A stretch of DNA of 44,007 nt from a phage, in sequence record PX907401.1, one strand, 5' to 3'. Positions 3,252-19,815 of the stretch are shown in pieces. Position 1 is the stretch's first letter, and each line of letters starts with the position of its first letter. A model generated the notes under the pieces. The model saw nothing but the letters and a program-made list of their open reading frames with translations, ran no database searches and was not told where the DNA came from. The position numbers and the translations under genes are program-made.

Positions 3252-3279
3252 CGTTCAGTCCTCATGTTGGTGTGCGACC

Positions 3280-3308
3280 AATATAGCCGGGTGCTGGGCT
3301 GAATGCAA
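3280..3308 (-). promoter_or_regulatory. Sigma70-like promoter on the minus strand (-35 TTGCAT, 17-bp spacer, -10 TATATT) carrying the ATTGGTTGCAT motif
   Basis: Minus-strand reading ATTGGTTGCATtcagcccagcacccggcTATATT; about 25 nt upstream of the ATG at 3251. Confidence 0.5.
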
Positions 3309-3449
3309 CCAATATTAATCACGCGCATGAAAAAGTTGATCGCTATCAGCTGTGACTGCATTTTTCACTACGCATAATGCATTGGTTGCCGAGTTCATCC
3401 GCGACCGCACTTCGCATCATGCTGCCGTGTATTTTGCGATCCACGGATT

Positions 3450-3623
3450 TTATTCAGTCTCAGACGAGGGGGGCCGTTGACCCCCGTCTAGTCTGAAAGA
3501 CTGGGGTTTGTCCCGCCTGTCCCGCTCCTCTGGAAGCCGCGCCATCCGGGGCGGGACGGGGGTGCTGTCCCGCTTTGTCCCGCCCCTTGTTTGTCCCGCT
3601 TTCTGTCCCGCTTACTTTATGCA
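3450..3623. repeat. Dispersed repeat element, copy A (about 174 bp; second copy at 31279-31452)
   Basis: Near-identical 5' 75 bp and 3' 48 bp shared with copy B; contains six direct TGTCCCGC heptamers plus one inverted, and hairpin-capable segments. Confidence 0.85.
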
Positions 3624-3696
3624 GTTTTATTGCATAACTATTCATTACAGCTACACGACACGGCAACCAATACGACCAGTTAAAAACGCCCAAAAT

Positions 3697-3836
3697 GGCA
3701 ACCAATGCGCGCAAAATTTAACCTTTTAGCGATATGGGAATTCCCATATCGGCAACCAATGCGCGCAAAATTTAACCTTTTAGCGATATGGGAATTCCCA
3801 TATTGGCAACCAATGCGCGCAAAATTTAATCTTTTA
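3697..3836. repeat. Tandem direct repeat, 54-bp unit x about 2.6, each unit with a perfect 18-bp palindrome ATATGGGAATTCCCATAT and a GCAACCAAT motif
   Basis: Units at 3697-3750, 3751-3804 and partial 3805-3836; palindromes at 3732-3749 and 3786-3803; overlaps the primase stop codon (3826-3828). Confidence 0.9.
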
Positions 3837-6090
3837 AATCATCATCGGTCGCTGAAAGCGTGATGGGTATGTTCGTTTTGATGACGATATTAGACGACCC
3901 ATAGATGGCCCCGGTGTGTGGGTCTGTGTAAAACCCAAGCACGCCGCGCTCGACCATATCGTCTATTGCCTTCGTCGATGTGCCACCTTTTGCCAATCCC
4001 GCCTGGCGGACGATTGCCGATTTACTGAATCCGGTATGGTCCGGGTTATCTTCCATCAGTTTTTCCAGTGCCGCATAAAGCACTTTCTCTTTTTCGTTGC
4101 GCGGTCCGGCGGCATTCTCTTCCTTAACTGCGGCTTTGCCAGCGGCCTTTGCTTGCTCAATGGCGAACGGTGCCAGGGCGACCGGTACGAGATAAAGAGT
4201 CTCGTCGCGTGGCGTGGATGCAATTGGCTTGACGTCCCAACCGGCAACCACGTCGCCGAAGTCAGGCCCGGTGCTGGTGGACTGGTGTGATTCGAACGCT
4301 TCGGACTTGCGGAGATCCACCTTAACCTTGCACTTGAGCAGGACGAAGCCGCGCGGCGCTTGCTTGATGCCGTTACGTGCCTTTTCGTGATACAGGTTCA
4401 ATTGGCCCGGCTGATTGTCGTCCGGTTGCTCCAGGAAGAACGCAGAATCGACAGCGCCATGCAGCGCGCCGGACCCACGGGGAGATCTGCTGCCGTTTGC
4501 ACCCTTCGCCGGGTGGTGGATGACGCCCGCACTGCCGCCTGTATTTTCCGCAATGGCCTTCAGCGCTTTGACCACTTCACCCATATCGCTGGCGTTGTTC
4601 TCGTCGAACGGTTTTGCATTGGCGGACCGCAGCGCAACAGTCTGGTTGAGTGAGTCGAACGCCACCAGGCCAACCGGTTCGCCGTTAGCGGTGCGGTTGA
4701 TGAAGCTGATAACTTCGCGCAAGCCGGACTTGTTGGTGATATCCCAGCCGCGTGACTGCAGATCGATAATGTGCAGCTTGTCGAGGTCGTGCTCATATTT
4801 AATCTGCAATGCTTCTTTGCGCTGGTTAGAGGCTTCACCACCTTCCGCATCGAAATAGAAGCAATGAGACTGGACGACCTTCGCACCGCCGAACGGAATA
4901 CCGGCGGCAACCGCGCCCATCTGCCCCAGCACATAGAAAGACTTACCAATGTTCGACTCGCCCGCCATATACCAGGTCGATTTGAAGTTAATCAACCCCT
5001 CGATAATCGGGTCGTGCTTACTGAACAGCGCAACCGGCTCGTTATCCAGATCCGCATCAGTACACACGCCGTACTCGTCGCCGTCTCCGACCGCATCAAC
5101 GATATGTTCATAGCACGATTCCACTTCCTCATCGTCCAGTCCCGGAAGGATGGCGGCGATTTGCTTACGTGACATGTTGTGCGGCTCGACGTTCAGGTGG
5201 TCCGGGATCCCGATAAGACGTAGCGCCAGGTGCTGGTGTCTGTTCAGTTCCGAGCAACACTCGTTGCCGGTGTGCATACACTTGAAACGGATCTCGCCAT
5301 CCTTAACCATGATAGCGGTTGACCCTTCGCCACTATGCAGATGTTCGTTCGGGCATGGCACTTCATAACCCCGACCGGACGACAGCGGTTCGAATCCTGC
5401 CTGGAAGCACCAGTCCAGAATGCCGTCCGCCACGCCGTCATCGCCCTGGGTTAGTTCGCGGCGTACTTTCTCTTTTTCCACTCCCAGCTTATCAGCCAGG
5501 CGAAGCAGACGACGGACGCGGGCACGCTTGCCGTAGTGGCACTTAATAACGGACTGCTGGTGTGGCAGGTACATCAGGCGGTTTGTATCTTTCGTGCAAT
5601 CGTCGAAGTCCACATCTGACAGACCCAGTTGGTGTAATAGTGCATACTGGACGCGGCCCAGGTCTTCAGCCGGTACAGGCTTGTCAGTGAGCACCAGGAA
5701 ACGGGCGCAACGCGTGCCGCCCTTCAGCGGGTGGCGGTCGCCGGTGGTGGTGTGAAATACGTGTTCCAGACCCGAGTCGATGAACGCCTTACGGCAGCGG
5801 CGCAGGGTGCGGGTGTCGGTGCGGTCAATATCAAAGAACAGGATCGAGCGGTCCACCGCACTGGTCTTACGACGCAATCCGTCACTGGTATACGCCACGA
5901 TGCCATCGGCCTTACGCTTGCGGCGCGCATACTCGGCTTTATCTTCCGTCTTGTTGATATGCACCGAGGAGATTTCTTTCGCATCTTTGATAAATTCGAA
6001 AAACTCATCGGTCGTCATCTGGAAGTTTTCCGCCCTGGCTTTTTCGCCTTTTTTAGCGGGTTTTGTTACAGCGAATTTAATCAAGCTCAT
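3826..6090 (-). CDS. Bifunctional DNA primase/helicase (primase-like N-terminal domain, P-loop ATPase C-terminal domain)
   Basis: 754 aa; FFDIDRTD acidic motif in the N-terminal domain; Walker A GESNIGKS and Walker B-like VAFDSL in the C-terminal domain. Confidence 0.8.
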   Translation of the reverse strand: MSLIKFAVTKPAKKGEKARAENFQMTTDEFFEFIKDAKEISSVHINKTEDKAEYARRKRKADGIVAYTSDGLRRKTSAVDRSILFFDIDRTDTRTLRRCRKAFIDSGLEHVFHTTTGDRHPLKGGTRCARFLVLTDKPVPAEDLGRVQYALLHQLGLSDVDFDDCTKDTNRLMYLPHQQSVIKCHYGKRARVRRLLRLADKLGVEKEKVRRELTQGDDGVADGILDWCFQAGFEPLSSGRGYEVPCPNEHLHSGEGSTAIMVKDGEIRFKCMHTGNECCSELNRHQHLALRLIGIPDHLNVEPHNMSRKQIAAILPGLDDEEVESCYEHIVDAVGDGDEYGVCTDADLDNEPVALFSKHDPIIEGLINFKSTWYMAGESNIGKSFYVLGQMGAVAAGIPFGGAKVVQSHCFYFDAEGGEASNQRKEALQIKYEHDLDKLHIIDLQSRGWDITNKSGLREVISFINRTANGEPVGLVAFDSLNQTVALRSANAKPFDENNASDMGEVVKALKAIAENTGGSAGVIHHPAKGANGSRSPRGSGALHGAVDSAFFLEQPDDNQPGQLNLYHEKARNGIKQAPRGFVLLKCKVKVDLRKSEAFESHQSTSTGPDFGDVVAGWDVKPIASTPRDETLYLVPVALAPFAIEQAKAAGKAAVKEENAAGPRNEKEKVLYAALEKLMEDNPDHTGFSKSAIVRQAGLAKGGTSTKAIDDMVERGVLGFYTDPHTGAIYGSSNIVIKTNIPITLSATDDDLKD

Positions 6091-10281: not shown

Positions 10282-10452
10282 ATGCGTATTAAAGCCAGCG
10301 AAGTAAAAGTCGGAATGCAAGTATGGTCCAAGCTACTGGGGGAATATTTCACAGTTGCCGAGATTCGCAACAACGGCGAAGAAATCGCCCTGTCCGACGG
10401 CATCTTCTCCATGATCGGCAGCAATGACGCCGTAGTGAGGATAAAGCAATGA
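10282..10452 (+). CDS. Small hypothetical protein (56 aa), translationally coupled to the polymerase (ATGA overlap)
   Basis: MRIKASEVKVGMQVWSKLLGEYFTVAEIRNNGEEIALSDGIFSMIGSNDAVVRIKQ; its stop overlaps the polymerase ATG at 10449. Confidence 0.5.
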   Translation: MRIKASEVKVGMQVWSKLLGEYFTVAEIRNNGEEIALSDGIFSMIGSNDAVVRIKQ

Positions 10453-13400
10453 AAGACTTCGAACGCCTGTTTCTCGACACCGAGACATTTAGCGGGGTGG
10501 ACCTGAAGAAAGTTGGGGCGTACGCCTACGCAGAGCACCCAACCACCGAGATTATGATTTGCACATACGCCATCGACGAGGGCCGCGTGCAGACATGGGA
10601 TTGCACTGAATCCCCCACAATGCCGCGTGAACTGCGCAAAGCGATCCGCCATGTATCCCGCAAGAAAGCAAAAATCGTGATGGCTAACGGCCTCCTGTTT
10701 GACCGCCTGGTTATTCGCGAGAAGTGGGGTATTGACCTGCCGGTAAGCCAGATCGAAGACACCATGATTATGGCCTTTCGCCACGCGCTGCCGGGTAGCC
10801 TCGATATGCAGTGCCAGGTGCTGGGCGTTGACGCAGAGCACGCGAAGGATAAGGCAGGCAAGGCGCTGATTAAACGATTCTGTAAGCCTACCCCTAAGAC
10901 CTACAAAATACGCCGCTACACTCGCGAGACTCACCCGGAAGAATGGGCCAAATTTCTGCGCTATGCCGCGCTGGATATTATCGCAATGCGTGAAGTCTAC
11001 TGGCGCATACCGGACTGGGGTAATACTCCGAAGGAAGATGAAATCCTACTTATCGACCAGTTGATCAACGACCGCGGCTTCTATGTGGACGTTGACCTGG
11101 CGAACGCCGCGATCAAAGCGGTGCAGGCGCATAAGGAAGAATTGAAGGAAGAAGCCTGGGAGCGATTTGGCGGTAAGCTGACCGGCAATGACTTCCTGCC
11201 AATCCTGCGTGATATCGCCCCGGCGTTCACGATCCACAACGCGCAGAAATCCACACTTAACGACCTACTGGAAGACCCGGACTTCCCGGACGAGGGCAAA
11301 GCGCTTATCGAAATGCGCCTCGGTGCGTCATCAACGGCATCTACTAAATACAATCCGCTTGTCAATGGCCTGTCCGCCGATGGTCGCCGCCGTGGTTGTC
11401 TTCAGTATGGTGGGGCAAAGCGCACGCTACGCTGGGCCGGTAAAGGCTTTCAACCTCAAAACCTGGCGCGTGGCGAGTACAGCGACGACCACGAAGGGAA
11501 GATTAAACGCCGCGAGGGTGAAAGCGACGTCTCGTTTTGGGTCCGGTCGCACATGCTCACCAACGGCATCAACTCCCTGTTACGCGGGACCGCACACTGG
11601 GCGTATGACATATCGAAGCTAACGGCCTCGACCGTTCGCGGGTGCATTATTCCGGCGAAGGGCAAGAAGTTTGTCGTAGCGGACTACTCCAACGTGGAAG
11701 GGCGTGGACTTGCCTGGATCGCTGGCGAGAAAACAGCGTTAATGGTCTTTAAGGCCGGTCGCGATATCTATTGCGAGACTGCCGGTAAGATGTTCGGCCT
11801 GGACCCGGACTACATTAAAGCCAACCGCAAGGACTTACGCCAGATCGGTAAGGCTTGCTTGCACCGCCATACCCAAGTATTGACCAATGGCGGGTTCAAG
11901 GATATTATGGCCGTAACATCAACGGATAAAGTATGGAACGGCGAAAAATGGGTGAGTACAAAAGGCGCGCACCTTATGGGGTGGAAACCAGTGATAGACG
12001 TGGACGGGGTCTTGATGACAGAAGACCACAAAATCTTGACGCATTCATGGAAGGAGGCAAGGCAACTCGTTTCAGACAGGTGCACGATGGCCCGCGCCCT
12101 GGCGAGAGGTATGGACGCCTGGTTATCCTGCGCGAATTACCAAAACGACAGGGGCACAGACAACTGCTGGCTCAATGTGATTGCGGAGCGATGCCAGGAC
12201 GCGTCGGGTATGACAACGTCCGAAGGGGTAAAACATCCCAATGCAACCTCTGCGCAATTGAAGCGACAAAGCGGTATCGTAAACAGTATTTTTGCTACGA
12301 TGACGCAATGCCAGACGATGCGCACAGAACGCGGCTGCTCAACCGGCTGTCCGCGGCAATATCACGAACGACAAACCCCCGCGCCAAAGGGTATAAAAAC
12401 TATGGCGGTCGTGGGATTGCCGTATGTGACGAATGGAAAAGAGATAAAAGGTCGTTTCTTCGCTACGTTCAAACGCTGGACGGCTGGGATAATCCAGACT
12501 TCGAAATGGACCGGGTCGATACAGACGGCAACTATGAGCCTGGAAACCTTCGGTTTGTCAGCCGTTCGGAAAACTGCCGTAACCGGCGCAGCGTGCCCGA
12601 GCTTCAGCGAAAGTGCGATGAAGCCCTTACCCGCATTGCTGAACTGGAACGGGAAGTTAACCTATTGCGAGCCGGTTTACGACCTGATTGATGTGGAAGA
12701 CGGAAACCGGTTCCTTATTGCGTCTAAGTCTGGTTTTCTGGTGGCGCATAACTGCGAGCTAGGCTTGGGCTATGGTGGCGGCGTGGCAGCGTTCTTGCAG
12801 TTCGCTAAAAACCTGGGCCTCGACCTGTACACTATGGCGGACGTGATGAAAGGCACGTTCCCGGATCACATTTGGGCGGCGGCGAAACGCGGCTATGAGT
12901 ACGCCCGCATTAACGAAGCGAAACGCCCACCGAAGCCTGGCAAGAAGGACGAGCGACCGACTTACATACTGCCGAAAAACGTATGGCTGACGTGCGACGC
13001 GATCAAACGTATGTGGCGAGAGGCCCACCCGAAGACGGTTGCCTTTTGGGCCGAGCTTGAGGACGCGGTGTTGTGTGCAATCCGCAATCCGGGCAAAGCA
13101 TACTGGGCTGGCGCGAACGTTCGCCCGGATGGCAAGAAAGCGCTCAAGATTGTTCGCACGAAGGCGAAGCACGACCCAACCTTCGACGAGGAGCGCGACG
13201 ACCCGGACGCTGCGGGGTGGTGGTTGAAAATTGAGTTGCCGTCGGGGCGCATCATGAGCTACCCCGGCATCGCGCTGTCTGTCACGACAGAGATTGACGA
13301 GGACACCGGCAAGAAGCGCACCAGCACACGCATTAAATATCAGGGCGAGAATCAGACGACGCGCCAGTGGGGGTTCCAGTACACCTACGGCGGCAAACTG

Positions 13401-13637
13401 ACGGAGAACATCGTACAGGCGTTGTGCCGTGATATTCTCGCATGGTCCATGCCGGGCGTCGAAGCCGCGGGGTATGAAATAGTCCTGTCAGTACACGATG
13501 AACTGATCACCGAAGTGCCCGACACAGACGACTACACGACAGAGGAGCTTTGCGCGCTGATGTGCGACCTGCCTGTTTGGGCGAAAGGCTTCCCACTTGC
13601 CGCCGAAGGTGATTGTATGTATCGCTACCGCAAGTAG
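10449..13637 (+). CDS. Family-A (Pol I-like) DNA polymerase with 3'-5' exonuclease domain, interrupted in motif B by an intein
   Basis: 1062-codon uninterrupted ORF; Exo I LFLDTETFS; motif A VVADYSNVEGRG; motif B RQIGKA / CELGLGYGG split by a 299-codon insert; motif C VHDE. Confidence 0.9.
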   Translation: MKDFERLFLDTETFSGVDLKKVGAYAYAEHPTTEIMICTYAIDEGRVQTWDCTESPTMPRELRKAIRHVSRKKAKIVMANGLLFDRLVIREKWGIDLPVSQIEDTMIMAFRHALPGSLDMQCQVLGVDAEHAKDKAGKALIKRFCKPTPKTYKIRRYTRETHPEEWAKFLRYAALDIIAMREVYWRIPDWGNTPKEDEILLIDQLINDRGFYVDVDLANAAIKAVQAHKEELKEEAWERFGGKLTGNDFLPILRDIAPAFTIHNAQKSTLNDLLEDPDFPDEGKALIEMRLGASSTASTKYNPLVNGLSADGRRRGCLQYGGAKRTLRWAGKGFQPQNLARGEYSDDHEGKIKRREGESDVSFWVRSHMLTNGINSLLRGTAHWAYDISKLTASTVRGCIIPAKGKKFVVADYSNVEGRGLAWIAGEKTALMVFKAGRDIYCETAGKMFGLDPDYIKANRKDLRQIGKACLHRHTQVLTNGGFKDIMAVTSTDKVWNGEKWVSTKGAHLMGWKPVIDVDGVLMTEDHKILTHSWKEARQLVSDRCTMARALARGMDAWLSCANYQNDRGTDNCWLNVIAERCQDASGMTTSEGVKHPNATSAQLKRQSGIVNSIFATMTQCQTMRTERGCSTGCPRQYHERQTPAPKGIKTMAVVGLPYVTNGKEIKGRFFATFKRWTAGIIQTSKWTGSIQTATMSLETFGLSAVRKTAVTGAACPSFSESAMKPLPALLNWNGKLTYCEPVYDLIDVEDGNRFLIASKSGFLVAHNCELGLGYGGGVAAFLQFAKNLGLDLYTMADVMKGTFPDHIWAAAKRGYEYARINEAKRPPKPGKKDERPTYILPKNVWLTCDAIKRMWREAHPKTVAFWAELEDAVLCAIRNPGKAYWAGANVRPDGKKALKIVRTKAKHDPTFDEERDDPDAAGWWLKIELPSGRIMSYPGIALSVTTEIDEDTGKKRTSTRIKYQGENQTTRQWGFQYTYGGKLTENIVQALCRDILAWSMPGVEAAGYEIVLSVHDELITEVPDTDDYTTEELCALMCDLPVWAKGFPLAAEGDCMYRYRK
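11856..12752 (+). other. Intein (protein-splicing element) within DNA polymerase motif B
   Basis: Starts with Cys (CLHRHTQVLTNGGFKDI), TxxH-like block (EDHKILTHSW), ends VYDLIDVEDGNRFLIASKSGFLVAHN followed by +1 Cys; flanks reconstitute the RxxxKxxxFGxxYG motif. Confidence 0.75.
11933..12691 (+). CDS. HNH-type (HNH_3/AP2-like) homing-endonuclease-like ORF in the -1 frame, entirely inside the intein
   Basis: 252-codon ORF; GERYGRLVIL...CDCG...QCNLC (Zn-ribbon-like) and GYKNYGGRGIAVCDEW...DRVDTDGNYEPGNLRFVSRSENCRNRR; the overlapping polymerase frame is also open throughout. Confidence 0.55.
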   Translation: MERRKMGEYKRRAPYGVETSDRRGRGLDDRRPQNLDAFMEGGKATRFRQVHDGPRPGERYGRLVILRELPKRQGHRQLLAQCDCGAMPGRVGYDNVRRGKTSQCNLCAIEATKRYRKQYFCYDDAMPDDAHRTRLLNRLSAAISRTTNPRAKGYKNYGGRGIAVCDEWKRDKRSFLRYVQTLDGWDNPDFEMDRVDTDGNYEPGNLRFVSRSENCRNRRSVPELQRKCDEALTRIAELEREVNLLRAGLRPD

Positions 13638-13668: not shown

Positions 13669-13947
13669 ATGACACCCGAAGGCAAGATACAAAGTCACCT
13701 GATGAAGCTGGTTAAAGCCGTTGGGGGATTCTGCCGAAAACTGGCATGGGAGGGGCGCGCAGGTGCGCCCGACCTGATTATTATCATCAACGGCAAAATA
13801 GTGTTCGTCGAAGTGAAGCGCCAAGGCGGAAAACCGAAGCCGCACCAGGTACGAGAACATGAGCGAATGGCCCGCCGTGGTGCTGACGTTCGCGTCATCG
13901 ACAACATAGCCGACTGTGATTTATTGGTTGCTGAATTGGTCGCTTAA
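13669..13947 (+). CDS. VRR-NUC domain nuclease (PD-(D/E)XK fold)
   Basis: 92 aa from the ATG at 13669 (GGAA about 9 nt upstream); GAPDLIIIINGKIVFVEVKRQGGKPKPHQ motif. Confidence 0.7.
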   Translation: MTPEGKIQSHLMKLVKAVGGFCRKLAWEGRAGAPDLIIIINGKIVFVEVKRQGGKPKPHQVREHERMARRGADVRVIDNIADCDLLVAELVA

Positions 13948-13987
13948 CAGTATAGTGAGCAGGTTAGCTCTACCGAGGATTTTAGAA

Positions 13988-14161
13988 ATGATTGAGGAAA
14001 AACGTTGCAGTAATTGCGGTTGCGTCAAGCCGCTATCCCAGTTCCACAAATACACCGGTAAGACCGCGCGAAGCCCGGACGGGTATCGGGCCGAGTGCAA
14101 ATCGTGCCGCAATAAAAAAGAGCGCGAACGGCAGCGCCGCTACCGCGCAGAGCAAAAATAA
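13988..14161 (+). CDS. Small Zn-ribbon protein (CxxC...CxxC)
   Basis: 57 aa from the ATG at 13988 (GAGGA 8 nt upstream); CSNCGC...ECKSCRNKKERERQRR. Confidence 0.55.
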   Translation: MIEEKRCSNCGCVKPLSQFHKYTGKTARSPDGYRAECKSCRNKKERERQRRYRAEQK

Positions 14162-14168
14162 TTAATAC

Positions 14169-14191
14169 GGCGGGCTTGTCCCGCCATTTTT
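14169..14191 (+). terminator. Rho-independent terminator
   Basis: GGCGGG-CTTGT-CCCGCC followed by ATTTTTG; the stem contains the TGTCCCGC heptamer also found in the dispersed repeats. Confidence 0.55.
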
Positions 14192-14427: not shown

Positions 14428-15852
14428 ATGGCACGATTCCGACGCCGCGAATATCAGAAGTTGATAACCGCGTTCATCCTCAAGCATAAGCGATGCAATA
14501 TATGGGCGACAATGGGGTCGGGTAAAACCGGCGCGACCATGTGGGCGCTGAATAAAATGTTCCAGACCGGCATCCTGTCCAACCAGGAGGACCGCGTACT
14601 GGTGCTAGCCCCGCTGCGCGTTGCGTCCGGTACATGGCCCCCGGAACAGGAGAAATGGCGCTTCCCAGCCTTGCTGGTGGTAGACGGCACTGGGTCAGAG
14701 AAGGACCGCATCGCGGCGCTTGAGAGCGACGCTAACGTGGTTTGTGTTAACTACGATGTGGTTGAGTGGCTGGTCGACTATTACGGCGATGCGTGGCCCT
14801 TTACGGTCGTTGTTGCCGATGAATCCACTAAGCTGAAAGGCTATCGTAGCAAGCAGGGGAGCAAGCGCGCCCGCGCACTGGCAGCGATTGCACATAAACA
14901 CGTCAAGCGCTGGATTAACCTGACCGGCACACCAGCGCCAAACGGGCTGAAAGACTTATGGGGCCAGACGTGGTTTGTCGACGGTGGCGAACGACTCGGC
15001 AGTAGCTATAAGGCATTTACCGACCGCTGGTTCATTAGCAAGCCTGTTAAGCCTGGCAGCTTCACTATGCAGCACGCTCCGCTAAAGAACTCCGAGAAAG
15101 AAATACAACAACGCCTGTCTGACGTATCACTAACCGTTGACGCGGCTGAATACTTCGGGTGCGACAAGCCAATCTATACGCCGGTTGTTGTGGATCTACC
15201 GAAGAAAGCCCGCAAGATTTACGACCAGTTTGAAAGCGAGCTATTTGCCGAACTGGAAAGCGGAACAGTGGAAGCGGCTAACGCTGCGTCGAAGACCATC
15301 AAGTGCCTTCAGCTTGCTTCCGGCGCTGTGTATAAGGTGGACGAAGACGGCGAACGGACCGACGAGTGGGTGAAGATTCACGACGCCAAACTGGACGCGC
15401 TGGAAAGTATCGTGGAGGAGTTGAACGGCGCGCCGTTGCTCGTTGCGTATCAGTATAAGCATGACCTGGCACGTCTTAAGAAGAAATTTCCGCACGGCGT
15501 CGCGTTGGGTAAGGGTAAGCAGGGCAATAAGGATATGGAAGCGTGGAACAGGGGCGAGATCCCCATCATGTTTGCACACCCGGCATCGGCAGGCCACGGC
15601 CTTAACTTGCAGGACGGCGGACATCACCTGGCAATCTTCTCCGATACCTGGAACTTTGAGCATTTTTCGCAGATCGTTGAACGTATCGGGCCGGTTCGCC
15701 AGATGCAGGCCGGACACCCTCGACCGGTATTCGTCTACATTATCCAGGCGCGCGGGACACTGGACGAATTGGTCGCCGAGCGTCGCGACAGTAAGCGAGA
15801 TATACAGGACGACTTGATGGAATACATGAAAGCTAAAAAGGCGCGCAAATGA
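14428..15852 (+). CDS. SNF2-like superfamily-2 helicase/ATPase
   Basis: ATG 14428 (MARFRRREYQKL); Walker A MGSGKTGA; DExx VVADESTKLK; NLTGTPAPNGLKDLW (SNF2-type motif III). Confidence 0.8.
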   Translation: MARFRRREYQKLITAFILKHKRCNIWATMGSGKTGATMWALNKMFQTGILSNQEDRVLVLAPLRVASGTWPPEQEKWRFPALLVVDGTGSEKDRIAALESDANVVCVNYDVVEWLVDYYGDAWPFTVVVADESTKLKGYRSKQGSKRARALAAIAHKHVKRWINLTGTPAPNGLKDLWGQTWFVDGGERLGSSYKAFTDRWFISKPVKPGSFTMQHAPLKNSEKEIQQRLSDVSLTVDAAEYFGCDKPIYTPVVVDLPKKARKIYDQFESELFAELESGTVEAANAASKTIKCLQLASGAVYKVDEDGERTDEWVKIHDAKLDALESIVEELNGAPLLVAYQYKHDLARLKKKFPHGVALGKGKQGNKDMEAWNRGEIPIMFAHPASAGHGLNLQDGGHHLAIFSDTWNFEHFSQIVERIGPVRQMQAGHPRPVFVYIIQARGTLDELVAERRDSKRDIQDDLMEYMKAKKARK

Positions 15853-16544
15853 TAATCTGGTCATTGTTTGACGGCAGCGGCTTGATGATTGAGCGTGCTG
15901 CCGAGATGGGGCATAAGTGCTACTGTTTTAACTACTCCGAAGCCGATCACGGGTCGTACCTCGACTACCGGATTTATGGCCGCGGGATCCGGTATCGCAA
16001 TGAGTTTATCGATCTGGACTTCGTGGACCGCGCGATGAATGGCGATTTCGGTACGCCGGATATCATATACGCTTTCCCGCCGTGTACGGATCTAGCAGTG
16101 AGCGGCGCGCCTGCTTTCCCGCGCAAGCGTGCAAAAGACCCCGCCTTTCAGCTTAAGGCCGTGCGCACCGCGAAGATCGCCGCTTACCTGGGTGATTTCT
16201 TTGAAGTGCCATATATGATTGAGAATCCGCGCAGTGTGCTTTCCACCCAGTGGCGCAAGCCTGATCACTCGTTCGACCCGTGGGAGTATGGGGGATATCT
16301 GCCGGAGGATGACGTACACCCGCTCTTCCCGGAATACATCAACGCCCGCGATTCATATCCGAAGCTGACCTGCTTATGGACCGGCAACGGCTTCCGTATG
16401 CCAGAGAAGAAACCCGTTTTCGTTGAAAAAGGGTACTCGAAGCAGTATAGCCGCCTCGGTGGTAAATCCGCTCGTACAAAATTAATCCGCTCACTAACTC
16501 CACGCGGCTTCGCGATAGCGGTTAACGAGGAAAATTTAAAATGA
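15849..16544 (+). CDS. Putative DNA cytosine-C5 methyltransferase (compact, 231 aa)
   Basis: Motif I-like SLFDGSG, motif IV-like FPPCTDLAVSG, motif VI-like ENPRS; ATGA overlap with the upstream helicase. Confidence 0.55.
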   Translation: MIIWSLFDGSGLMIERAAEMGHKCYCFNYSEADHGSYLDYRIYGRGIRYRNEFIDLDFVDRAMNGDFGTPDIIYAFPPCTDLAVSGAPAFPRKRAKDPAFQLKAVRTAKIAAYLGDFFEVPYMIENPRSVLSTQWRKPDHSFDPWEYGGYLPEDDVHPLFPEYINARDSYPKLTCLWTGNGFRMPEKKPVFVEKGYSKQYSRLGGKSARTKLIRSLTPRGFAIAVNEENLK

Positions 16545-16864
16545 ACGCTACATACGAAACCTTAGACTTTTCGGTTGCAATGACTAACCAGTTATTCTCC
16601 TACGACAGCAAAACCGGCGTCATTCGTCTGAAGTCCACCGGCTGCAAAATTGGCAACATCAATACTGCCGATGGTGGCACACGTATCGAATGCAACGGCA
16701 AAACTCTATCGGGGGCGCGCGTGGCGTGGATTATTGAGACTGGCAATACAATCCCTCCAGGCTATGCCGTAGTGTGCCGTCAGCGCACACCAGGCCACTA
16801 CGGCAACCGAATCAGCAATCTGTATCTGGTAGACGTAGCGCGCGACCCAAATTTTTATGCGTAA
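16541..16864 (+). CDS. Small HNH_3/AP2-family-like protein, possibly catalytically degenerate
   Basis: 107 aa; YDSKTGVIRLKSTG...GGTRIECNGKTLSGARVAWIIETG resembles the N-terminal region of phage HNH endonucleases; no clear HNH catalytic motif. Confidence 0.4.
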   Translation: MNATYETLDFSVAMTNQLFSYDSKTGVIRLKSTGCKIGNINTADGGTRIECNGKTLSGARVAWIIETGNTIPPGYAVVCRQRTPGHYGNRISNLYLVDVARDPNFYA

Positions 16865-16898
16865 ATTGGTTGCATAAGCATATTGGTTGCATTATATT
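16865..16898 (+). promoter_or_regulatory. Promoter with tandem ATTGGTTGCAT motifs (-35 TTGCAT, 17-bp spacer, -10 TATATT)
   Basis: ATTGGTTGCATaagcatATTGGTTGCATTATATT read directly. Confidence 0.5.
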
Positions 16899-16944
16899 GA
16901 GGGTGTCCGGTTGGACGCCCTTTTTAATACCTGGAGACAACACG

Positions 16945-17409
16945 ATGAAAATTTTACAAGAAGAAAAAGCATACTGGGCCGCGCAATGCCTCGAAGCCCG
17001 CGAACAGGCCGAACGTGCGAACGCGTTGGCAGACACTAACCAGGCGCTATATGAAGGCGAGGAGAAGGCGCGCAAGGAATTAGTGGAGCGCTTCGAACTG
17101 CTGTATGAGTTGATGGGTATTATGCAGCGCACCGGGTACACAACCACCGTCGCGCTAAACCGCATCACTGCCGATGGTTTGCGTGAGCATTGCAAACTAG
17201 CGGAAGAGTACGTGCGCCCCAAAGGTCGCCAGTCTAAGATCGACCGGAAAGACCTGGTGCTTATGGCGTGGCGCAACCCCACAAACGGCAACTTCTACCC
17301 GGACGCGCGCCCTTTAGGTGTGTCGGAGACGCAGCGATTGCAGCGAATCCTGAAAAAAGGTGACAAGATTGCCCTGTATGCGATAGACCCCGACCATGCA
17401 GAAGAGTGA
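16945..17409 (+). CDS. Hypothetical protein (154 aa)
   Basis: ATG at 16945 with GGAGA RBS; the track ORF starts earlier at 16774 without an RBS. Confidence 0.55.
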   Translation: MKILQEEKAYWAAQCLEAREQAERANALADTNQALYEGEEKARKELVERFELLYELMGIMQRTGYTTTVALNRITADGLREHCKLAEEYVRPKGRQSKIDRKDLVLMAWRNPTNGNFYPDARPLGVSETQRLQRILKKGDKIALYAIDPDHAEE

Positions 17410-17881
17410 GCAAAAAGATAGCTGGCGCACGCCGCTAGCTTTATTTAAACCGCTGCGCCGTAAGTTCCGATTCCGTTACGATATGGCGGCAAGCGACGCC
17501 AATCATCTGCTACCGCGTTACTTCACGGCAGAGCACAGCGCGCTTGATGTGGACTGGGCAGAGTTGAAAGGGTGGAAGTGGTGCAATCCGCCGTATTCCG
17601 ATCCGCTGCCGTGGGTTGAGTGCGCTGCGCACGGACGACGGACTGTCATGCTGCTGAATCAGGACACGTCGACGAAGTGGGCGAAGTTGGCCCGGAAGAC
17701 TGCAAACCTGATAATTCTTCTGGACTGGCGGGTGAGATTTATACACGCCGTCACCGGCGAAGTCGGGCCGAGCAATAACAAGTGCCAGCAATTGATAATC
17801 TTTGACGAAGCGCCACCCATCGGCAGCGCAAAAATTGAAATAATGAGCGAAGGAGAACTCCTTGAATATCTTAATCGTTGA
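17396..17881 (+). CDS. Phage-type DNA N6-adenine methyltransferase (Dam-like)
   Basis: 161 aa; WRTPLALFKPL N-terminal motif and NPPYS catalytic motif. Confidence 0.75.
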   Translation: MQKSEQKDSWRTPLALFKPLRRKFRFRYDMAASDANHLLPRYFTAEHSALDVDWAELKGWKWCNPPYSDPLPWVECAAHGRRTVMLLNQDTSTKWAKLARKTANLIILLDWRVRFIHAVTGEVGPSNNKCQQLIIFDEAPPIGSAKIEIMSEGELLEYLNR

Positions 17882-18086
17882 CCGCGACCCAGCGGTCGTA
17901 GACCAAATGCAAAGAGACTATAACATCAACCCACGCCGCGATTGTGTGCGTCGCGTGTCACGGCCTGAATACCTTCTGGGCCTGGATCTTACCGGCTGGC
18001 TTGTCATAACCAAGCGTTGCCATTTCGTGTGCAACTCCTTCACCGCGCGCAGCGCCCGATACACCCTTATTGAGAGCTTAAAATGA
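17862..18086 (+). CDS. Hypothetical protein (74 aa)
   Basis: ORF overlapping both neighbours by a few codons. Confidence 0.4.
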   Translation: MNILIVDRDPAVVDQMQRDYNINPRRDCVRRVSRPEYLLGLDLTGWLVITKRCHFVCNSFTARSARYTLIESLK

Positions 18087-18553
18087 AACTACTGATTTGT
18101 GATCTTGATGGCGTTATTAATGGTTCGAGTGATGCACGCGCCGACCTGGTGCCGGGTATAAAAACCAAATCAACATTTTGGGCAAAGTGGCACAAAGCGC
18201 ATGCACGCGAAGACCTGAACATGGATATGCTGCCGCTGTTGCGCATGTACAAAGAGCAAGGCTTCGAGATCGCGTATCTGACAAACCGGCAGCGCGAATG
18301 TTGGGACACGACCGCCGAACAACTGGAGGTCTTCCCCGCAGGCCGGTTGTTTATGCGCCACATGCTGGACGACACCCCGCCGCCAGAGTTTAAGGCGTGC
18401 GCCGTGTTCAAAATGGTCTGCTATGCGGACGTATCGGAACTGGTCGTCATTGAAGACTGTCCGAAGAACATCGCGGCAATTCGTCGGGCGTGCAGCGATC
18501 TGGTCCCGAAAATTTATGCGATAAACGTTGAAAAATTCACTTGCAACCAATAG
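18083..18553 (+). CDS. HAD-superfamily phosphatase-like protein
   Basis: 156 aa; N-terminal LICDLDGVI (HAD motif I DxDG). Confidence 0.55.
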   Translation: MKLLICDLDGVINGSSDARADLVPGIKTKSTFWAKWHKAHAREDLNMDMLPLLRMYKEQGFEIAYLTNRQRECWDTTAEQLEVFPAGRLFMRHMLDDTPPPEFKACAVFKMVCYADVSELVVIEDCPKNIAAIRRACSDLVPKIYAINVEKFTCNQ

Positions 18554-18570
18554 GTTGGTTGCACTATAGT
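18541..18570 (+). promoter_or_regulatory. Promoter (-35 TTGCAA, 18-bp spacer, -10 TATAGT) with inverted GCAACCAAT / TTGGTTGC motifs
   Basis: TTGCAACCAATAGGTTGGTTGCACTATAGT read directly; overlaps the 3' end of the upstream gene. Confidence 0.45.
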
Positions 18571-18615
18571 TAACGCGTCGGGGCAATATGGCCCCACGCT
18601 AAAAAGGACCACATA

Positions 18616-19170
18616 ATGAAAGCATACGAATACTGCAAAAACGCCGCCACCACTATGGAACAGCGCGGGAAAGAAAATGGCTATGACAACGCGAAAGAAG
18701 AACGCAGCGCGAAACAGATCGCTGCCGTGTTTAACGCGCTTACCGGGCGCGACCTTACCGAGCAAGAAGCCTGGACATTCCTGATCTGCCTGAAGCTGGT
18801 GCGCCAGCACCGTAAGCACCAGGAAGATAACATCGTGGATCTGGTGGCGTATGCCGCCCTGCTGGGCGAGTCTTACATGACCGTGCATGATGAGATTCAG
18901 ATCGACACAACGGCAGCACAATTCGAAAGCCTAAAAGATCTGTCCGGGCGTCTTGACGGCGAGATTAATGCGTATAACAGTGCAATGCGCGTTACCGGGG
19001 ATATGGTGGCCTCGTTCGGGAAGACCGTTAAAGCTGCCAATTTCGGCATTGCTGCCCAAGAAGTCCAGCCTATGGTCGTGCTCACCGGCGAAGACGGGTC
19101 TAAAATCCTCATGACGCCGGAAGACTTCCGCAACATGGAAAAAACACTGGTACGTAGCGCGCTGAAATAA
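18616..19170 (+). CDS. Hypothetical protein (184 aa)
   Basis: AAGGA RBS upstream of the ATG. Confidence 0.55.
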   Translation: MKAYEYCKNAATTMEQRGKENGYDNAKEERSAKQIAAVFNALTGRDLTEQEAWTFLICLKLVRQHRKHQEDNIVDLVAYAALLGESYMTVHDEIQIDTTAAQFESLKDLSGRLDGEINAYNSAMRVTGDMVASFGKTVKAANFGIAAQEVQPMVVLTGEDGSKILMTPEDFRNMEKTLVRSALK

Positions 19171-19788: not shown

Positions 19789-19815
19789 AAAAAAGGGCCG
19801 TATGGCCCTTCTCTT
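19787..19815. terminator. Bidirectional rho-independent terminator between converging transcription units
   Basis: AAAAAAAA-GGGCCGTATGGCCC-TTCTCTT; the hairpin is flanked by an A-run on one side and a T-rich run on the other. Confidence 0.7.

Follow-up and report, generated by a model that had tools for sequence, protein, structure and literature searches.

A locus in the 44,007-nucleotide phage sequence PX907401.1 (the window, by which we mean this whole stretch) raises the question of whether one phage encodes two DNA methyltransferases of different classes, and of what such a pair would do for it. An earlier note had read a C5-cytosine-like enzyme in a 231-amino-acid open reading frame (ORF) and a Dam-like N6-adenine enzyme in an ORF of 161 amino acids. 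Our analysis supports two orphan phage DNA methyltransferases, a compact C5-cytosine enzyme and an adenine-N6 enzyme of family PF05869, located in a Dhillonvirus replication-gene cluster; we give this reading a probability of roughly 0.85. A megablast search with positions 15000-19000 identified the window as a Dhillonvirus coliphage, with 91-93% identity to the best matches (the Escherichia phages Zumzum, welsh, CEC_Kaz_2018 and PaulFeyerabend). The search matched 160 phage records, and in 152 of them 80% or more of the query was present. The gene order in the GenBank record of PaulFeyerabend parallels that of the window: DNA helicase, Dcm-like C5 cytosine methyltransferase, putative homing endonuclease, hypothetical protein, Dam-like N6-adenine methyltransferase, hypothetical protein, putative phosphatase. 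The methyltransferase finding therefore restates existing annotation. Both genes are already annotated in more than 100 related phage genomes and are core Dhillonvirus features, so that the observation is correct and well supported, and was already known.

The 231-amino-acid protein was analyzed by profile search, alignment and structure prediction. It matched phrog_757, annotated as 'DNA methyltransferase', with an E value of 2e-82 over residues 1-229, a full-length match far beyond chance, and it carries the FDGSG, PPC (within FPPC) and ENPRS motifs claimed for it. Within FDGSG, residues F7, G9, S10 and G11 were invariant in 36 close relatives; the wider family has the pattern [FY]-D-x-[TS]-G, the middle Gly not being kept in an alignment of 113 representatives (32-55% identity to the query). 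Eleven positions (C79, E125, N126, P127, G86, Y170, K172, W177, R214, P218 and G220) were each more than 90% conserved among these representatives, and for the first four together with Y170, K172, W177 and R214 the figure was at least 93%. The fold needed to bind S-adenosylmethionine (SAM) was also predicted: the AlphaFold2 model (mean predicted local distance difference test score, pLDDT, 90.2; predicted template modeling score 0.89) has a C5 methyltransferase fold, and a Foldseek search with it returned 62 PDB matches at E <= 1e-3, with DNMT3A and DNMT3B at the top.

The protein had also been described as unusually short and perhaps without a normal target-recognition domain. In substance this is right, as no sizeable recognition domain is present between motifs VIII and IX. 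In the model the last core strand (174-179) is separated from the C-terminal helix (219-229; family sequence SLTPRGFAxAV, which may correspond to motif IX or to motif X) by only about 40 residues, to which an insert of about 30 residues at 143-173 can be added. The recognition region is therefore genuinely small, yet shortness is the norm of the family and not a peculiarity of this protein, most relatives being about 210-290 amino acids long. The family itself is large. A word-indexed search found 2,886 relatives, and an exhaustive search with the family profile found 1,963 clusters at 50% identity, with 112 of the 149 representatives listed falling between 200 and 290 amino acids. By tblastn the family was present in 1,512 of 50,697 phage records (3%), including Drexlerviridae, Vequintavirinae-like myoviruses, 9NA and many Klebsiella phages. 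Neither Pfam nor NCBIfam has a model for the family, so its members are often left as 'hypothetical protein' in phage annotation. In one member (P0278, 563 amino acids) the compact C5 module is fused to a D12-class Dam (PF02086, 2.5e-48), which supports a role of the family in DNA methylation and indicates that the pairing of adenine with cytosine methyltransferases recurs. Another member (P0281, 348 amino acids) has an HNH_2 domain, and several others have N-terminal extensions of 170-200 residues that match nothing in Pfam.

Experimental data exist for a member of this family, the Dcm of K42, a KarlJaspers-type Drexlerviridae phage. All mutations by which K42 escaped the retron Ec86 fell in its 711-bp dcm gene; expression of this gene activated Ec86 and increased 5-methylcytosine (5mC) in multicopy single-stranded DNA (msDNA) as determined by liquid chromatography-mass spectrometry, and a C82A/E128A/K175A/K176A mutant was inert (bioRxiv 10.1101/2023.08.16.553469). 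The same study found that Ec86 defence was lost when either C of the CCTGG in msDNA was altered, and that msDNA in strain MG1655 contained little 5mC until the phage enzyme was expressed, Dcm itself being toxic according to the authors (bioRxiv 10.1101/2023.08.16.553469). The Dcm/Ec86 result is treated as established in a later paper. KarlJaspers, a phage nearly identical to K42, likewise has a Dcm-like gene of 711 bp. We found the 231-amino-acid protein to be 54% identical to KarlJaspers Dcm over its full length by BLASTP (E 1e-86), with C82, E128 and K175 of the latter aligned to C79, E125 and K172. The protein thus belongs to a family in which one representative has been characterized as methylating C5 in DNA.

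Detection of 5mC as the product of the K42 orthologue bears on whether the 231-amino-acid protein could transfer another group, for instance as a C5-carboxymethyltransferase using carboxy-SAM made by the host. The precedent is CmoX, a phage DNA cytosine C5-carboxymethyltransferase of 372 amino acids that has an SPPC motif and is encoded beside CmoA and often CmoY (PDB 8YF3; PMC12783734). CmoX owes its selectivity to an Arg, R350, that replaces Asn304 of M.HhaI where the C-terminal helix begins. Arg219 is a candidate counterpart of R350, likewise placed in our model, but it is found in just 78 of the 113 family members (69%). Carboxy-SAM is made in E. coli through CmoA; in the window, however, none of the 16 predicted proteins scanned resembled CmoA or the CmoY ligase, and the motif is FPPC instead of the SPPC that defines CmoX. 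With the orthologue's product identified as 5mC, we consider such a transfer highly improbable.

The 161-amino-acid ORF was found to carry the NPPYS motif that had been read in it. It matched PF05869 at 1.8e-35, its score of 122.5 bits being four-fold above the gathering cut-off of 28.1 and its alignment spanning profile positions 5-151 of 169, and it matched phrog_111 at 4e-54. Among 12 relatives, P66, Y67 and S68 were invariant and N64 and P65 nearly so. Upstream of NPPYS, D29, M30, A31 and A32 were also invariant, and DMAAS (residues 29-33) is a likely SAM-binding motif. The word-indexed search returned 16 clusters for this protein, which represents a narrow subfamily, and the Dam-like protein of KarlJaspers (233 amino acids) is 30% identical to it over 151 residues. 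These analyses show family membership and conserved catalytic residues for both methyltransferases, and the fold for the C5 enzyme.

Several observations weigh against reading the two proteins as DNA methyltransferases that serve the phage in this capacity. The 231-amino-acid protein had no match in Pfam or NCBIfam, with nothing for PF00145 at E <= 1 (23 of the 36 close relatives matched PF00145 weakly, the best at 1.3e-6). Searched against PDB sequences, the 36-sequence family profile found just M.HaeIII, at an E value of 0.86 and over motifs I-IV; the single sequence gave a chance kinase match only by phmmer, and hhalign of the family with M.HhaI aligned motifs I-IV alone at 6% probability. 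The canonical motif VIII, QxRxR, is absent, and a conserved D-x-Y-x-K-x-T-x-x-W at residues 168-177, which leads into the last core strand, may replace it. At position 28, where an acidic residue following strand 2 contacts the SAM ribose, 91% of the family has Asp; the enterobacterial clade that includes the 231-amino-acid protein has Asn, as does KarlJaspers Dcm at the equivalent position. K176, one of the residues mutated in the K42 study, corresponds to Leu173, at a position that varies within the family (K in 49 of 113). The specificity of K42 Dcm for CCWGG was assumed from its name and from the msDNA mutants, not mapped (bioRxiv 10.1101/2023.08.16.553469). For the 161-amino-acid protein, the score against TIGR01712 was 86.2 bits, under the equivalog cut-off of 97.05, and it is thus a family member that this model does not certify as an exact functional equivalent; its structure model, built from a shallow alignment, was poor (pLDDT 67) and the fold search made with it was weakly supportive. 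In the BASEL study, Dhillonviruses were comparatively sensitive to the restriction systems assayed there, and no simple link emerged between phage methyltransferase genes and resistance to restriction. Literature searches for methylomes or restriction digests of Dhillonviruses or of the compact C5 family turned up the retron Ec86 work alone.

The Asn at position 28, the sub-threshold TIGR01712 score with the poor model, and the size of both proteins, at the lower limit of their classes, could also be taken to mean that one or both are not DNA methyltransferases, the C5-like protein being an RNA methyltransferase (Dnmt2-like) or inactive and the Dam-like protein a degenerate remnant. We regard this as very unlikely. 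Catalytic residues are conserved over hundreds of clusters, and both genes are retained in 152 of the 160 related genomes. On the cytosine side the K42 orthologue methylates DNA and a relative is fused to a DNA adenine methyltransferase of the D12 class; on the adenine side the Pfam cut-off is exceeded four-fold and NPPY is invariant.

What the two enzymes would recognize was approached through site counts in the window. We infer CCWGG as the target of the C5 enzyme, as proposed for the K42 orthologue, and GATC as that of the adenine enzyme, as for PF05869 enzymes of the T1, HP1 and VT2-Sa type. Neither site is strongly avoided: 164 GATC sites were counted (observed/expected 0.80), and 142 CCWGG sites against 154 expected (0.92). 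Their clustering showed nothing striking, and counts of this kind cannot establish specificity. The C5 enzyme could be real and yet have a target other than the CCWGG of host Dcm, either a shorter or different motif or hairpin or single-stranded DNA, a possibility that we consider unlikely though worth keeping in view. Strain MG1655 is dcm+. A different target would explain how the K42 orthologue activates Ec86 and is toxic in a dcm+ host, in which msDNA was low in 5mC before the phage enzyme was expressed; the very small recognition region and the best structural matches, DNMT3A and DNMT3B, which read only CpG, point the same way, and the K42 specificity was itself inferred. The loss of Ec86 defence on changing either C of the msDNA CCTGG argues for CCWGG, however, as does the near-expected number of CCWGG sites, which would be expected if these sites were protected. 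A very short, broadly protective motif is countered by the strong avoidance of many GC-rich palindromes. Among 6-bp palindromes, depletion (observed/expected) was strong for GGCGCC (0/23), GCCGGC (0/18), AAGCTT (0/14), TCCGGA (1/14), GGGCCC (1/12) and TGGCCA (0/7), and CTAG (25 against 55 expected) and GGCC (172 against 238 expected) were also low. The pattern is compatible with a phage that evades type II restriction enzymes by avoiding their sites. Taken with the near-expected counts of GATC and CCWGG, this depletion fits narrow, site-specific methylation plus avoidance and does not fit broad protection.

Reading the pair as two orphan DNA methyltransferases, we propose the following mode of action. 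In the SAM-dependent 231-amino-acid enzyme, Cys79 of FPPC would attack C6 of a flipped-out cytosine, Glu125 of ENP would protonate N3, and the methyl group would be transferred to C5. DNA would be read by a much reduced, DNMT3-like region made up of residues ~143-173 and 180-218, which includes the conserved YPK motif and the LGGK...IRSLTPRG stretch. The 161-amino-acid enzyme, a minimal phage Dam of the PF05869 type, would methylate adenine N6 by means of NPPY. Methylation by both would take place once DNA has been replicated, the substrates being progeny phage DNA and whatever host or retron DNA is accessible. Their likely role would be to shield DNA, independently of host Dam and Dcm, from restriction enzymes that cut at the methyltransferases' own target sites, and the cost would be vulnerability to defences that sense methylation, retron Ec86 among them. 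The dual protection against host restriction suggested by the earlier note is plausible; the sensitivity reported in the BASEL study, together with the palindrome avoidance, suggests that any protection is limited to the enzymes' own sites.

The genes and elements of the locus are collected in Table 1. Between about 14190 and 19788 every gene is on the plus strand, most of them overlapping by 4-20 nucleotides, and small genes continue downstream of 17881. The start of the 231-amino-acid gene overlaps the stop of an upstream SNF2-type helicase gene, which ends at 15852, within the sequence ATGA. Upstream of the block are genes for an exonuclease, a Gp2.5-like single-stranded DNA-binding/annealing protein, a DNA polymerase and a helicase, an arrangement that fits expression of the methyltransferases along with the replication genes. 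The neighbours of the methyltransferases are the helicase, a degenerate HNH_3-like protein of 107 amino acids, a 154-amino-acid protein, a 74-amino-acid protein and a HAD phosphatase. Pfam and phrog scans of these neighbours found no intact nuclease that could be a cognate restriction endonuclease for either methyltransferase; with no partner nuclease nearby, both are therefore orphan. Rfam and tRNA scans of the window gave no matches.

Table 1. Features of the methyltransferase locus and its flanks (window coordinates)
Feature	Position	Strand	Remarks
Terminator-like hairpin	14169..14185	+	Upstream end of the block holding both methyltransferase genes
C5-cytosine DNA methyltransferase gene, compact, 231 aa	15849..16544	+	'Dcm-like' in the annotation of relatives
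Motif I FDGSG, residues 7-11	15867..15881	+	SAM-binding loop after strand 1; from the sequence
Motif IV FPPCT, residues 76-80	16074..16088	+	Catalytic Cys79; C79 in 108/113 representatives
Motif VI ENPRS, residues 125-129	16221..16235	+	Glu125; E125 in 111/113, N126 in 105/113, P127 in 111/113
HNH_3-like ORF, 107 aa	16541..16864	+	Start overlaps the stop of the 231-aa gene (ATGA)
Two 17-nt units with ATTGGTTGCA, then TATATT	16865..16898	+	Promoter-like: TTGCAT, 17 nt, TATATT
GC-rich hairpin GGGTGTCC-GGTT-GGACGCCC, then TTTTT	16901..16925	+	Terminator-like; read from the sequence
Gene for 154-aa protein	16945..17409	+	ATG at 16945, not 16942; 14-nt overlap with the start of the Dam-like gene
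Phage-type N6-adenine DNA methyltransferase gene, 161 aa (PF05869 'Dam')	17396..17881	+	Pfam profile
Catalytic motif IV NPPYS, residues 64-68	17585..17599	+	From the sequence
Terminator-like hairpin	19793..19810	+	Directly after the last plus-strand gene of the block (end 19788)

As the earlier note had stated, two small genes separate the methyltransferase genes. The 107-amino-acid ORF matched phrog_99 at 1e-16 and PF13392 at just 0.053. In a weak alignment (E 0.025) with a homing endonuclease of Felixounavirus, a Gln of the ORF takes the place of the catalytic His in the 'DH' motif, and its PaulFeyerabend counterpart is annotated as 'putative homing endonuclease'. It is probably the truncated, decayed remnant of such an enzyme. 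We considered whether this ORF and the C5 gene could form a miniature restriction-modification or homing cassette, given that the two genes overlap at ATGA, that the 107-amino-acid protein matches HNH endonuclease families and that another member of the compact C5 family carries an HNH_2 domain. The protein is short, however, its PF13392 match is marginal, the Gln stands at the catalytic His position (in what is a weak alignment), and in KarlJaspers the pairing is absent, other small genes flanking Dcm; a cassette is for these reasons extremely unlikely. The 154-amino-acid protein matched phrog_10530, labelled 'DNA ligase', at 1.2e-94, is a 'hypothetical protein' in PaulFeyerabend, and had no Pfam or NCBIfam match. 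Because it is also far too small for a ligase, the 'DNA ligase' label, which has been carried into some GenBank records, looks unreliable.

The claim that both methyltransferase genes lie in the same operon stood in part. The genes of the block share one strand, mostly overlap and lie between terminator-like hairpins, but the 80-nucleotide gap at 16865-16944, between the two small genes, contains a promoter-like repeat as well as a hairpin with a T-run. The TATATT box is situated 17 nucleotides past the first TTGCAT of the repeat, and PaulFeyerabend has three units there. The hairpin is kept in PaulFeyerabend, and the segment 16860-16947 has a predicted folding energy of -24.5 kcal/mol (z -2.25); the hairpin was not among the hits of a scan for consensus terminator-like hairpins. 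With both elements in the gap, the methyltransferase genes may lie in separate, adjacent transcription units, that is, in sub-units of one gene cluster and not in one uninterrupted operon.

The 10-mer ATTGGTTGCA of this gap recurs elsewhere. Allowing at most one mismatch, we counted 18 copies in the window against 3.4 expected, a number reached in 0 of 100 shuffles. They are located at 282, 2719, 3273-3814 (7 sites), 6618, 13923, 16865, 16882, 18542, 18554, 21076, 37080 and 37094. The copies are mostly intergenic and upstream of genes, in matching orientation, and are often paired and often arranged as TTGCA(A/T)-N17-TATAnT. In its distribution the 10-mer resembles a promoter or operator motif specific to the phage. 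A 54-bp tandem repeat at 3697-3836 (2.6 copies, 97% matches) adjoins the helicase-primase gene (3826-6090, minus strand), its last few bases lying inside the 3' end of that gene; each unit contains the palindrome GATATGGGAATTCCCATATC and one ATTGGTTGCC copy, and the repeat may be an origin of replication or a regulatory array. At 13916-14161 (plus strand), a small Cys-rich protein is encoded that matched phrog_5558, 'Lar-like restriction alleviation protein' (1e-18); its matches to HNH and endonuclease VII phrogs were weaker, and it had none in Pfam. The ATTGGTTGCT motif at 13923 falls inside this ORF as listed from a GTG start, so that the true start is probably a downstream ATG (MIEEKR...).

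A further feature was observed in the family A DNA polymerase ORF (10449-13637, plus strand, 1062 amino acids), which has a 299-amino-acid in-frame insertion (11856-12752) with the hallmarks of an intein, inside motif B. Its junctions read ...RQIGKA|C470-LHRHTQVLT...GFLVAHN768|C769-ELGLGYGGG. The PF00476 match ends at residue 469, and phrog_93, 'endonuclease', spans the insert. The insertion is 97% identical in Sodalis phage SO-1, and most Dhillonviruses are without it. In Jerseyvirus Salmonella phages an 'intein-containing DNA polymerase precursor' is annotated, with about 79% nucleotide identity.

As a discovery the methyltransferase pair carries little weight, the genes being core and annotated and one member of the C5 family having already been studied experimentally. 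If this family of about 2,000 clusters reads a target other than that of host Dcm, the 'Dcm-like' label would be misleading, and the Dhillonvirus copy would confer a distinct epigenetic mark together with a liability to methylation-sensing defences, for example retron Ec86. Sensitivity to retron Ec86 may also be predictable from the presence of this Dcm-like gene, a point to consider when therapeutic phages are chosen.

Comparison with known systems places the pair as follows. The closest characterized relative of the C5 enzyme, the Dcm of KarlJaspers (Bas06) and K42, is of the same compact family and similar length (236 compared to 231 amino acids) and has the Cys, the Glu and the first Lys in common with it, but comes from another phage lineage, with other small genes flanking it and no 107-amino-acid HNH-like neighbour. 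The catalytic domains of DNMT3A and DNMT3B, the best structural matches, are only 13-16% identical to the 231-amino-acid protein and belong to eukaryotic, oligomeric enzymes that have regulatory domains and read CpG. E. coli Dcm and enzymes of the M.EcoRII and M.HhaI types (PF00145) exceed the 231-amino-acid protein by 100-240 residues and have both a large recognition domain and the canonical motifs VIII to X. The adenine enzyme has NPPY in common with the T1-type Dam exemplified by the KarlJaspers Dam-like protein and differs in lacking about 50 N-terminal residues. Phage P1 Dmt is a fused Dam plus C5 phage methyltransferase. The fused family member P0278 likewise pairs adenine with cytosine methylation, whereas in the window the two enzymes are encoded by separate genes and the adenine enzyme belongs to PF05869 instead of the D12 class (PF02086).

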